Notes: generated by a model not told the origin, from the sequence alone. A stretch of DNA of 20,000 bases from an uncultured virus (IMG/VR IMGVR_UViG_3300012665_000858) (IMGVR_UViG_3300012665_000858); one strand, 5' to 3'; numbered from the stretch's first letter, positions 1,357 to 3,398 are shown. A program made the numbers and translations.

Positions 1357-1362
1357 TATATA
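1357..1362 (+). promoter_or_regulatory. Late-promoter-like TATATA box, 5 nt before ATG 1368
   Basis: Same box-N5-ATG spacing as at 7498 and 7749; no Shine-Dalgarno is visible. Confidence 0.4.
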
Positions 1363-1367
1363 TGTGC

Positions 1368-1802
1368 ATGTCATGGCACTATCAAAATGTACTTGTCGAA
1401 ACTCTTCCGGAAGATTGTATAGGTTTTGTTTATATCATCACTAATACACTTACGGGCAGAAAATACATAGGCAAGAAACTAGCCAAATTCTCTAAAACGA
1501 CTACAAAAACAGTAAAGCTCAAAAACGGCACCAAGAAGAAAAAGAAGATTCGTAGTAAAATCGACAGCGACTGGCGAGAATATTACGGTTCAAGTCCTGC
1601 TCTTCAAGCAGACATCGACACACTAGGCATAGAAAACTTCCACAGAGAAATACTTTATTACTGTAAAAGTAAAGCAGAATGTAGTTACATCGAGGCTAGA
1701 GAACAATTCACAAACAAAGTACTAGAATCCGACGACTGGTACAACGGACATATTCAAGTTCGTGTACACGGTTCACATATTAAAAAACTCTCCCAAGGCT
1801 GA
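1368..1802 (+). CDS. Stand-alone GIY-YIG endonuclease (T4 EndoII/DenA- or Seg-like catalytic domain)
   Basis: GFVYIITNTLTGRKYIGKK (GIY...YIG), WREYYGSS, a conserved-type Glu helix (SYIEAREQ) and WYN. No C-terminal DNA-binding extension. ATG 1368 is preferred over 1362 on promoter spacing. Confidence 0.85.
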   Translation: MSWHYQNVLVETLPEDCIGFVYIITNTLTGRKYIGKKLAKFSKTTTKTVKLKNGTKKKKKIRSKIDSDWREYYGSSPALQADIDTLGIENFHREILYYCKSKAECSYIEAREQFTNKVLESDDWYNGHIQVRVHGSHIKKLSQG

Positions 1803-2180
1803 TTAAACGGTTACAGCTCGCGCAGGCCAACTTCATGCGCCCTAAACCTGGATCTCGGATCACAGGGATGGAATTCTCTTGCCGTTAAGAGTACTCAGCA
1901 ACTATCCTTAACAGGACGAGGATCACTAACTGCCGTGGTTTTGCTGTTTTAAGAATAAAAGGCCCAAAGAGAGGAGAGACACCTCACGTAAGCAAGTATG
2001 ATAGCGTATATTTGTTTGCCGCCGTTGTGATAAGACGGAGCTCGTGGTACCGGACAACCGCCACTGTAATGCTCTAACGCTGTGTGACATTGTGCAACTC
2101 AGATAATGTTTTTAACTTTGCCCTGTGCGGGCGAAGTGTGACTGAACAATCTAGATAATATTTAAAGTGCTTCGCACTTA
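1803..2180 (+). ncRNA. Putative large structured non-coding RNA of unknown class
   Basis: No ORF of 60 aa or more. About ten consecutive stems, several containing G-U pairs that work only on the + strand (1988-2000/2007-2019, 2115-2123/2129-2137, 1921-1926/1935-1940). The loop at 2001-2006 can pair with 2078-2083 to form a pseudoknot. Confidence 0.6.
2082..2163 (+). repeat. Imperfect direct repeat GTGTGAC-N5-7-AA(CTC/TCT)-AGATAAT(G/A)TTT, two copies
   Basis: 2082-2111 gtgtgacattgtgcaactcagataatgttt versus 2136-2163 gtgtgactgaacaatctagataatattt, flanking a 9-bp hairpin. Confidence 0.6.
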
Positions 2181-2250
2181 ATAGTTCTTAATAATTAAAA
2201 AGAAAGAAATAGTTCGAGCGAAGCGATGAACAGATGAACGCAGTGAATCT
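2165..2250. other. Cluster of three GNA-triloop mini-hairpins around an A/T-rich tract
   Basis: Minus strand AAGTGC-GAA-GCACTT (2165-2179). Plus strand GTTC-GA-GC-GAA-GC-GA-T-GAAC (2212-2231) and AGAT-GA-AC-GCA-GT-GA-ATCT (2232-2250). Confidence 0.6.
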
Positions 2251-2257
2251 TGAAGTA

Positions 2258-2494
2258 TTAGAAAAAAGGTAATCCTGATTTCTTAGTAGTTTCTAAATTC
2301 TCTTTGATAATGTTCGATATGATTTCACGATCTTCATAGGATAATGCAAATGCTTCATCTATGGTGATGCTACCTCTCATATACCAGCACAATTTAAATA
2401 ATTCGGTTTTAACAGACTTTGCTTCTTTATCTAGCCCCTCAACTACTCGTAGTGCCTCTTCGAGTGTTAGGCTGAAGAGCTTTACACGAAAAAA
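2258..2494 (-). CDS. Unannotated -1 frame ORF, probable frameshift extension of the gp26-like gene (gp51-/P2 gpE'-like tail assembly chaperone C-terminus)
   Basis: Reads FFRVKLFSLTLEEALRVVEGLDKEAKSVKTELFKLCWYMRGSITIDEAFALSYEDREIISNIIKENLETTKKSGLPFF*. The frame is open from 2521 but has no start codon before TTG 2392 or ATG 2380. It overlaps the upstream gene at TTTTTTC. Confidence 0.75.
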   Translation of the reverse strand, partial: FFRVKLFSLTLEEALRVVEGLDKEAKSVKTELFKLCWYMRGSITIDEAFALSYEDREIISNIIKENLETTKKSGLPFF

Positions 2495-3348
2495 TTCGAA
2501 GAGTCCAGTCCTATAGGAGTTTCAAACTCTGCTGGCGCACCTTGAGCTTGTTCTTCTTGGGTCGTTTGAATTTTAAATGATGGCATTTGGAACTTAATGC
2601 GTTGTTTTTCCAAGTGATCGATGATTTTGCTGTAAAACTCTTTGTCAGCATTATCTATAAACTCCTTGATGAACTCTGCATTATTAACTTCTCCATCAGG
2701 AGTAACAACTTTCACCAAGCCGTTGGCCACGGACCGCATAGTAATTTCAGTTAACGCCTTGAAACTTTTATTAAACTGTGCAATTTTTTGTTCTTCTGTG
2801 ATTTCTTGATTGTTAACAATGCTAAAAATTCGTTGTTCTTCCAAACTTTTTAAAGAACTTTGTGTGAATTCTTCATAGGTTAACGGACGTAAGAATGCAG
2901 TTAACTCGTCATTAATTTTTACTTCTGGGTCAAATGTTGCTTCTAGTAACTTATCCAGTGCAAATCGTAAATCGGTAGTGTATGTTTTTGTCTCAGGTAT
3001 ATTAGGAATAGCAATATCTAACTCTATTTGCTCACCGTATGTTGCTATACGAATAGCAATTAGTATAGCGTCTACATCGATACTAGGAATTACCCACGCA
3101 TTTTTAATATTAGGCATACAACTTTGAATAACATCCACGGTGCTCTGACCATTTAACAATGCGTCAGGAGTTTTAATAGAAATTTCATCTCTGGCAGTCA
3201 TTGCATATACTGGAAACTCCATATTCTGTGTAGGCTCTAATGCACCTGGTGGATAAAAGTTTCCAGAACTAGGCAACCGAACATATAGTTTTGGCTGTCT
3301 AAAGTACTTCTTTAACGGGTTTTGAGGTACTGCTACTTGATTTTCCAT
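2482..3348 (-). CDS. Baseplate hub/tail assembly protein, T4 gp26-like
   Basis: PKLYVRLPSSG, MTARDE...LLNG, IDVDAILIAIRIATYGE and a C-terminal xxFF resemble gp26-family proteins. GGAG SD and TATAAATA lie upstream, and the gene is adjacent to a tape-measure-like gene. Confidence 0.7.
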   Translation of the reverse strand: MENQVAVPQNPLKKYFRQPKLYVRLPSSGNFYPPGALEPTQNMEFPVYAMTARDEISIKTPDALLNGQSTVDVIQSCMPNIKNAWVIPSIDVDAILIAIRIATYGEQIELDIAIPNIPETKTYTTDLRFALDKLLEATFDPEVKINDELTAFLRPLTYEEFTQSSLKSLEEQRIFSIVNNQEITEEQKIAQFNKSFKALTEITMRSVANGLVKVVTPDGEVNNAEFIKEFIDNADKEFYSKIIDHLEKQRIKFQMPSFKIQTTQEEQAQGAPAEFETPIGLDSSNFFV

Positions 3349-3390: not shown

Positions 3391-3398
3391 TATTTATA
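3391..3398 (-). promoter_or_regulatory. T4 late promoter consensus TATAAATA for the gp26-like gene
   Basis: Plus-strand tatttata reads TATAAATA on the minus strand, about 45 nt upstream of ATG 3348. Confidence 0.7.

Follow-up and report, generated by a model that had tools for sequence, protein, structure and literature searches.

The interval behind a stand-alone GIY-YIG nuclease gene in the genome of an uncultured virus (IMG/VR IMGVR_UViG_3300012665_000858; the 20,000-nucleotide stretch of DNA that was analyzed is referred to here as the window) is a real feature, and the region 1815-2250 belongs to a known, functionally orphan RNA family, the Polynucleobacter-1 RNA. We consider it probable, at roughly 0.7, that ~1815-2250 on the plus strand is a phage Polynucleobacter-1 RNA of ~430 nt with two pseudoknots, and that it is self-contained and acts in trans. 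Four features appear to be new: the presence of the RNA mainly in T4-like freshwater phages, its ~430-nt extent, the second pseudoknot, and a pair of repeats whose 7-mers change in lock-step.

Identity and fold of the RNA

Reading of the ORFs together with Pfam and PHROG assigns T4-like phage gene content to the first 7.5 kb of the window. The genes around the interval are the following.

2-1132: gp46/SbcC-like gene, 3' part
1125-1352: 75-aa ORF
1362-1802, plus strand: SegE-like stand-alone GIY-YIG nuclease gene, 146 aa (PF19835, phrog_447), the usual upstream neighbor of the RNA
2258-2521, minus strand: -1 frame extension of the gp26 gene, an open frame of 87 codons
2482-3348, minus strand: gp26-like baseplate-hub/chaperone gene (PF12322), convergent with the RNA and bounding it
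Beyond the gp26-like gene: a 790-aa gene, then the gp20 portal gene

The initial annotation of this DNA had described the interval as free of any substantial ORF, and this is confirmed: between the GIY-YIG stop at 1802 and position 2257 the sole listed ORF is one of 54 aa on the minus strand (1926-2090). It had also noted the lack of a terminator between the nuclease gene and the RNA, and the only plus-strand terminator-like site is indeed at 2165-2179. A blastn search with 1362-2480 against 50,697 phage records gave no match. At the other end of the interval, a heptamer TTTTTTC lies on the minus strand at 2494-2488, 4 nt ahead of the gp26 stop; together with the open -1 frame to 2258, the heptamer fits a putative gp26/gp51 -1 frameshift.

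The single match of Rfam cmscan in the whole window is RF01718 (Polynucleobacter-1 RNA) at 1815-1949 on the plus strand, with 115.5 bits against a gathering cut-off of 37, model positions 1-141 of 141 covered, and E = 7e-25. The interval had been put forward as an undescribed RNA, and a clean Rfam match had been named beforehand as the finding that would remove the novelty; because just such a full-length match was obtained, that claim fails. Other Rfam models apart from RF01718 gave chance-level matches only. The statements that the RNA is neither a tRNA or tmRNA nor a group I or II intron hold, with 0 genes reported by ARAGORN in the window and no intron model of Rfam matching at E<=10 in 1700-2500. 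A group I intron with a GIY-YIG homing endonuclease was rejected, since there is no intron-model match and the flanking genes are complete. The first six stems that had been recognized by inspection are P1-P4 of RF01718; of these helices, numbers 1, 2, 4, and 6 pair in 94-100% of cells, and each has 3-5 compensatory pairs.

The Polynucleobacter-1 motif was described by Weinberg et al. (2010, Genome Biol 11:R31, PMC2864571), and in the literature searched the names Polynucleobacter-1 and RF01718 lead to that paper only. Its table places the motif in "Burkholderiales, fresh water/estuary" with the entries RNA "y" and "cis-reg? y" (PMC2864571). The Stockholm alignment and the drawing in its supplement (files 5 and 6) reach the equivalent of ~2085 in the window (PMC2864571). 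In the drawing one finds, besides the 13-bp long stem and the hairpin GGUACCGG..ACCGCC, a "pseudoknot?" that joins UAGCRU to YRCUR; the structure lines SS_cons and SS_cons_1 of the alignment match window positions 1971-2083 (PMC2864571). This published optional 3' extension, consisting of the long stem-loop and the pseudoknot, is present in the window. Because the 2010 alignment and drawing already carry both fold and pseudoknot, the first reading of the window amounted to an independent rediscovery of them. The table and supplement files 5 and 6 of the 2010 paper name no phages for the motif, whereas the RNA in the window resides in a T4-like phage genome, 3' of a GIY-YIG gene, and adds a second pseudoknot. 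The Rfam model ends at 141 positions and the 2010 alignment at ~2085; the RNA in the window is ~165 nt longer.

In our view the covariation in aligned phage copies is decisive, and settles that the plus-strand RNA fold is real. Alignment A3 comprises 34 distinct phage copies, in which the previously listed stems and pseudoknot were scored (87 pairs): 89.6% of the cells pair, compared with 79.1% in shuffles (0/500 reach the observed value) and 36-46% when the partners are slid, and compensatory changes on both sides are seen in 48 of the 87 pairs. The claim of a structured, pseudoknotted plus-strand RNA is therefore well founded. Folding energy against shuffled controls gave a marginal result that is weak evidence by itself: the plus strand folds at -109.3 kcal/mol with z = -1.76, and 5/100 shuffles are as good; the minus strand has z = +1.12 and the 3' part alone z = -1.55. 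The elements of the fold, all on the plus strand and with pairing percentages from A3 unless another source is given, are listed below.

1815-1949, plus strand: 5' domain, RF01718 Polynucleobacter-1 RNA, P1-P4 and three-way junction (Rfam); helices 94-100% paired
1820-24/1836-40, plus strand: stem, 99% paired
1847-54/1858-66, plus strand: stem, 94% paired
1876-80/1887-91, plus strand: stem, 78% paired; the alignment slips here
1896-1901/1941-46, plus strand: stem, 99.5% paired
1921-26/1935-40, plus strand: stem, 100% paired
1971-74/1982-85, plus strand: small hairpin, 79% paired; the alignment slips here
1988-2000/2007-19, plus strand: 13-bp stem, 93% paired, 12/13 pairs compensatory; its loop 2001-06 is part of pseudoknot 1
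2001-06/2078-83, plus strand: pseudoknot 1, 100% paired, 5/6 pairs compensatory
2024-28/2054-58, plus strand: pseudoknot 2, GUUGU with the hairpin loop ACAAC, 97% paired, 3/5 compensatory
2037-41/2071-75, plus strand: helix enclosing the hairpin 2044-64 (GGUACCGG..ACCGCC), from RNAalifold; one pair with 11 compensatory changes
2039-41/2071-73, plus strand: stem, 98% paired
2115-23/2129-37, plus strand: stem, 90% paired

Most of the stems first proposed are retained, including the pseudoknot 2001-06/2078-83, for which a covariation check had been suggested. The stems 1876-80/1887-91 and 1971-74/1982-85 come out weaker, and 2022-26/2034-38 was discarded: it is 84% paired with 0 compensatory changes and is replaced by the pseudoknot 2024-28/2054-58. 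RNAalifold puts G2037 and G2038 in the helix 2037-41/2071-75. Pseudoknot 2 is not seen in the structure lines of the 2010 alignment (PMC2864571).

The repeat module, the tail, and a sibling RNA

Because conserved sequence continues past 2085 and past 2180, and the open -1 frame of the gp26 tail-chaperone gene starts only at 2257/2258, we take the interval to be entirely RNA; judged from this conservation the RNA would extend to about 2250, roughly 430 nt. Its 3' part contains the following elements.

2096-2107, plus strand: repeat 1, AACUC+AGAUAAU
2115-2137, plus strand: hairpin between the repeats
2148-2159, plus strand: repeat 2, AAUCU+AGAUAAU
2165-2179, plus strand: UUCG-looped, terminator-like hairpin with an A-rich tail after it
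2212-2231, plus strand: tail hairpin with loop GAGCGAAGCGAU (GAGCG..AGCGA); conserved loop and differing stems, by eye
2232-2250, plus strand: last hairpin, decayed; likely the 3' end of the RNA, by eye

The hairpin 2165-79 is 46% paired in the MAFFT alignment and by eye has a UUCG or UACG loop on variable stems across relatives. Both tail hairpins (2212-31 and 2232-50) were found by eye in phage type 1, in phage type 2 (described below), and in bacterial copies. The last one has two mismatches in the clade of the window, which lost the downstream gene, and is intact in gene-bearing relatives.

The two direct repeats are 11 nt each, ACUC+N7 and AUCU+N7, and lie 36-61 nt apart. Their 7-mers change in lock-step, being identical within a copy and different between copies, with at least 20 distinct 7-mers. 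An exactly matching 7-mer pair in the same layout is found in 78/92 sequences; the matching layout is present in 73/74 usable loci of an RNA-first viral sample, which shares contigs with the gp26-anchored set used below and represents one phage lineage. Columns 2101/2153 and 2105/2157 agree in 34/34 copies of A3, and among the same 34 copies no third column covaries with the 7-mer columns. The 7-mer differs between close relatives, and also between the two copies in the bacterial genome G001, which are 18 kb apart. In L102 and L109 there are G/A mismatches between the repeats that would fit wobble pairing to U. A search for a cis complement of the 7-mers gave nothing consistent within -700 to +400 nt or over whole loci, and in genome G040 the 7-mer motif had 11 matches and the control also 11. 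RNAalifold over all three RNA classes returned 0 pairs for the repeat module, where the alignment is out of register.

Several other readings of the repeats were rejected. Two sigma-70 promoters would have the wrong spacing, and the type-2 and bacterial repeats are without a -10 box. Ribosomal bypass is known from T4 gene 60, and the phage 7-mers can be read as a codon plus TAA or TGA; a bypass of this type would require features that are missing here, as there is no ORF, the bacterial 7-mers are stop-free, and the spacing is out of frame. Box C/D-like elements or anticodon-loop mimics are a poor fit, and a target-site duplication of a mini-element is hard to reconcile with the age and strong conservation of the arrangement.

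The distribution of the RNA in phages was followed in a gp26-anchored sample of 80 IMG/VR loci. Rfam finds RF01718 in 9 of the 17 related loci given to it, and a model built from the Rfam hits finds it in 46/80 gp26-anchored loci, always convergent with gp26. The nhmmer profiles of 1957-2100 and 2101-2182 are both contiguous with it in 46/46 of these loci, and blastn shows 1957-2180 to be 70-85% identical in nucleotides even in loci whose gp26 protein identity falls to 45%. In 19 gp26-anchored loci the nuclease gene is present and the RF01718 domain absent. The 10 of these 19 that were aligned (A4) have a different conserved element of ~400 nt in the same place, which we call type 2.

L016:5574-6135, minus strand: type 2 (A4)
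L045:5868-6387, minus strand: type 2 (A4)
L036, L061, L075, L024, L027, L033, L040, L047: type 2 (A4)

Type 2 has its own 5' helices, with 20/66 pairs predicted by RNAalifold compensatory, and has the repeat module and tail in common with the RF01718-type RNA. A type-2 element searched against Rfam gave 0 matches at E<=1. As predicted from these alignments, type 2 is a second, undescribed RNA type that shares the 3' module at the same locus. For type 2, the RNAalifold consensus joins the invariant portions of the repeats to 5' segments, without compensatory support for these pairs; because of this predicted pairing the repeats may be structural and not free seeds.

Relation to the neighboring genes

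The reading that we prefer is that of an autonomous RNA acting in trans, because the plus-strand fold is conserved, conservation is stronger than in the neighbors (no other part of the locus is as well conserved as the RNA), and the RNA is independent of any one neighbor. It would be a self-contained RNA gene, neither a leader for the downstream gene nor a dedicated nuclease subunit. In this phage its transcription would probably come from read-through of the GIY-YIG gene, as neither a terminator nor a promoter-like site lies between the two. The conserved 3' module is probably where the RNA does its work; in it, two AAYYY+N7 segments, without a proven partner in the consensus folds, lie on either side of a hairpin and have an identical 7-mer. 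The 7-mer may then be a duplicated specificity determinant, serving either as a double seed that pairs with a nucleic acid or as two matched sites for a protein.

A different role was suggested by the initial annotation. The OMEGA/HEARO guide RNAs are large structured RNAs encoded beside a small nuclease gene (IscB, TnpB), and by analogy the RNA in the window could serve a ribonucleoprotein with the GIY-YIG nuclease as its guide or scaffold, which we think unlikely. It is likewise large, structured, and encoded beside a small nuclease gene in a mobile or viral genome; no terminator separates it from that gene, and the variable duplicated 7-mers resemble specificity elements. The nuclease consists of the GIY-YIG catalytic domain alone, with PF19835 matched at 2.4e-33 over profile positions 1-123 of 123. 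In the RNA-first sample (80 viral loci, of which 2 are cut and 78 were counted) the GIY-YIG gene ends <120 nt upstream of the RNA in 70/78 loci, and in the gp26-anchored loci it is directly upstream in 44/46, the other two being cut. Because the two sets overlap in their contigs and represent one phage lineage, these counts are not independent events and the adjacency is largely inherited gene order. The direct adjacency in 70/78 phage loci leaves room for a lineage-specific nuclease partnership.

Against a general partnership stands the fact that co-occurrence is not obligate in either direction, unlike what the analogy with OMEGA/HEARO would suggest. The RNA is found without a GIY-YIG gene in Polynucleobacter chromosomes and in 2/78 phage loci (L139 and L184, with none within 2.5 kb), and in 6/78 other genes separate it from the nuclease gene. 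Conversely, homologues of the nuclease occur across 495 phage records, largely of cyanophages, and RF01718 is absent from the two homologue loci inspected (Melnitz and S-ShM2; L081 and L082); the 10 aligned loci with a GIY-YIG gene and no RF01718 domain have another 5' RNA domain in its place. The enzyme also differs from the OMEGA/HEARO nucleases in being GIY-YIG and not RuvC or HNH, and the window locus showed neither a transposon end nor an adjacent guide. Candidate guide segments are the variable 7-mers, for which searches of whole loci and of genome G040 gave no target. The proposed test of co-occurrence thus went against the nuclease-partner idea: the RNA is a neighbor of the nuclease, not an obligate partner.

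The nuclease gene has, moreover, been exchanged among close relatives in which the RNA remained in place. Between the window and L001, nt identity is 58-70% in the nuclease gene, 76-97% in the flanks, and 91-99% in the RNA (RNA span 1884-2483), which looks like an allelic replacement of the GIY-YIG gene at 1400-1800 that stops where the RNA begins. The window GIY-YIG allele is closer (~80% at the protein level) to distant relatives such as L023 than to L001. The closest cultured relative of the nuclease is that of Methylophilales phage Melnitz, at 49% identity. PADLOC matches the window GIY-YIG to "homing endonuclease" at 6.2e-08, and a PDB sequence search with the nuclease gave nothing at E<=1. 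Extra genes that separate nuclease gene and RNA were seen at L183:1794-2438, L117:1521-2447, L131:1591-2442, and L146:1663-2463, the one in L183 resembling a second GIY-YIG homing endonuclease.

Also improbable, in our estimate, is that the RNA is a cis-regulatory leader or riboswitch for the downstream gene. The entry "cis-reg? y" in the 2010 table (PMC2864571) points that way, as do the same-strand gene that follows the RNA in most relatives and, in bacteria, a variable gene and then a recombinase downstream. The window, however, does not have the RNA in the presumed 5' leader position: it is followed by no same-strand gene but by a convergent one. That position is a role proposed for the motif and no part of its structural definition. 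In the window and 13 close loci the RNA persists at 88-95% identity although the downstream gene of the other relatives is missing. Where they exist, the downstream genes are unrelated between loci, and a Pfam search with ten downstream "gene X" proteins and four small ORFs returned sub-threshold matches only. In many of the relatives examined a TATAAATA or TAAATA box, which we take to be a T4 late promoter, lies between the RNA and the downstream gene. The leader model is weakened because the clade of the window is without the gene and because relatives have this late-promoter-like box; a length of 430 nt with two pseudoknots is also large for such an element. The only TATAAATA of the window lies at 3391-3398 on the minus strand, just ahead of gp26.

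Chromosomal copies and other possible roles

A motif scan of bacterial genomes, one genome per species, found 9 loci, mostly in Polynucleobacter, all with RF01718 at 86-99 bits; the copy in G040 has the same coordinates as the genomic hit of the 2010 paper. RF01718 is above the cut-off in 16/141 Polynucleobacter genomes, with 1-2 copies each. The bacterial copies have the full 3' extension, the repeat module, and the tail, and four of them have 1-2 mismatches between the 7-mers. The chromosomal module consists of a divergent DUF6641 gene, the RNA, a variable gene, and then a 188-189-aa tyrosine recombinase ORF, which comprises the PF00589 catalytic domain only and is present in 7/9 of the first loci. 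DUF6641 and the recombinase without a GIY-YIG gene are found in 11/11 further chromosomal loci (L109 being the L090 contig), and a twelfth locus, on a 9-kb MAG contig, is phage-type with a GIY-YIG gene. The patchy module lies at L101:4366-7054 and at 10 further loci (L098-L107, L109).

In all of the 20 bacterial rows examined (L083-L109; L090 = L109) the RNA is preceded, at a distance of 25-60 nt, by a [CT]TAAATA box, which reads TATAAATA in L085, L086, L099, and L107. The box is presumably similar to the T4 late promoter, and it could be just an AT-rich -10 box.

The position of the bacterial copies upstream of a minimal tyrosine recombinase gene recalls, in architecture only, the IS110 bridge RNA, which is encoded next to a recombinase gene and has two internal specificity segments with a short common core (Durrant et al., 2024, PMC11208160; Hiraizumi et al., 2024, PMC11208158). 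The Polynucleobacter recombinase is, however, of the tyrosine type PF00589 and not of the IS110 type, and neither IS110-like element ends nor donor/target sites were found in whole loci and genome G040; an IS110-type bridge RNA was therefore rejected. It is very unlikely, as we judge it, that the RNA, together with its type-2 sibling, is a programmable specificity module guiding minimal DNA enzymes devoid of DNA-binding domains, the 146-aa GIY-YIG protein in phages and the 188-aa tyrosine recombinase in Polynucleobacter. Under such a scheme each identical 7-mer would pair with one of two DNA partners sharing a common core, and the shared core would be comparable to the overlap regions of tyrosine-recombinase sites. 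This would be RNA-guided cutting or recombination of DNA of a new class, and much would be gained if the repeats did act as guides; if they do not, this is one more large orphan phage RNA.

We give only a very small probability to an element that works at the DNA level, whether a replication origin that uses a primer RNA, the second idea of the initial annotation, or a site of recombination or cassette exchange whose repeats function as DNA. Such an element would account for the 3' end of the RNA bordering a variable region in phages and bacteria alike, for the swapping of the nuclease gene on its 5' side as well, for iteron-like direct repeats that remain identical, and for the adjoining tyrosine recombinase gene in bacteria. 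The compensatory changes, G-U pairs included, instead show selection on a plus-strand RNA fold; they weaken the DNA-element models, as do the negative checks for inversion and repeats. Cassettes compared between genomes gave 1 weak inverted match against 153 same-sense matches, and around the bacterial module no inverted or direct repeats are common to the two loci examined. The direct repeats are, in addition, just 36-61 nt apart, and the tail motif occurs once per locus and not at every cassette joint.

Cross-talk between phage and host island, in which the chromosomal copy would belong to a phage-responsive island and one copy would mimic or compete with the other, is highly unlikely: it could draw on the same full-length RNA in T4-like phages and in the patchy Polynucleobacter module, on the late-promoter-like box upstream in the bacterial rows, and on a clamp-loader-like ATPase near the chromosomal module, but that box may be AT-rich -10 sequence, DUF6641 has no homologue in phage records at E<=0.001, and among ten proteins searched with PADLOC the module's own (the DUF6641 protein, the recombinase, and the cassette protein) had no match, the weak matches being to a nearby AAA ATPase (best TRIP13, 2.8e-06) and one other neighbor (0.0038). 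The name DUF6641 has no mention in the literature searched.

The autonomous trans-acting RNA that we favor is also comparable to GOLLD and ROOL, large orphan RNAs of phages and prophages that are hundreds of nt long and have multiple pseudoknots. The RNA in the window is likewise phage-borne, hundreds of nt in length, and equipped with more than one pseudoknot; it differs in having no sequence or model match to them, Rfam matches apart from RF01718 being at chance level. Polynucleobacter-1 has been an orphan motif since 2010, and its main home is now a T4-like freshwater phage lineage. The real RNA is ~3x the length of the Rfam model, and the 3' module with its lock-step 7-mers is common to the unmodeled type 2 and to chromosomal copies beside a minimal recombinase. 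Experimental handles exist in a culturable Polynucleobacter strain with the RNA (G040), in defined mutable positions, and in two candidate protein neighbors.

Contigs of three riverine-metatranscriptome runs (X1, X4, and X5, from three studies) cover the RNA of relatives at ~90-95% likeness; these are a weak hint of expression of the relatives' RNA, as such contigs give no strand, ends, or level and may derive from carried-over DNA, and stretches without coverage carry no information. One metatranscriptome contig of 1229 nt spans 1816-2500.
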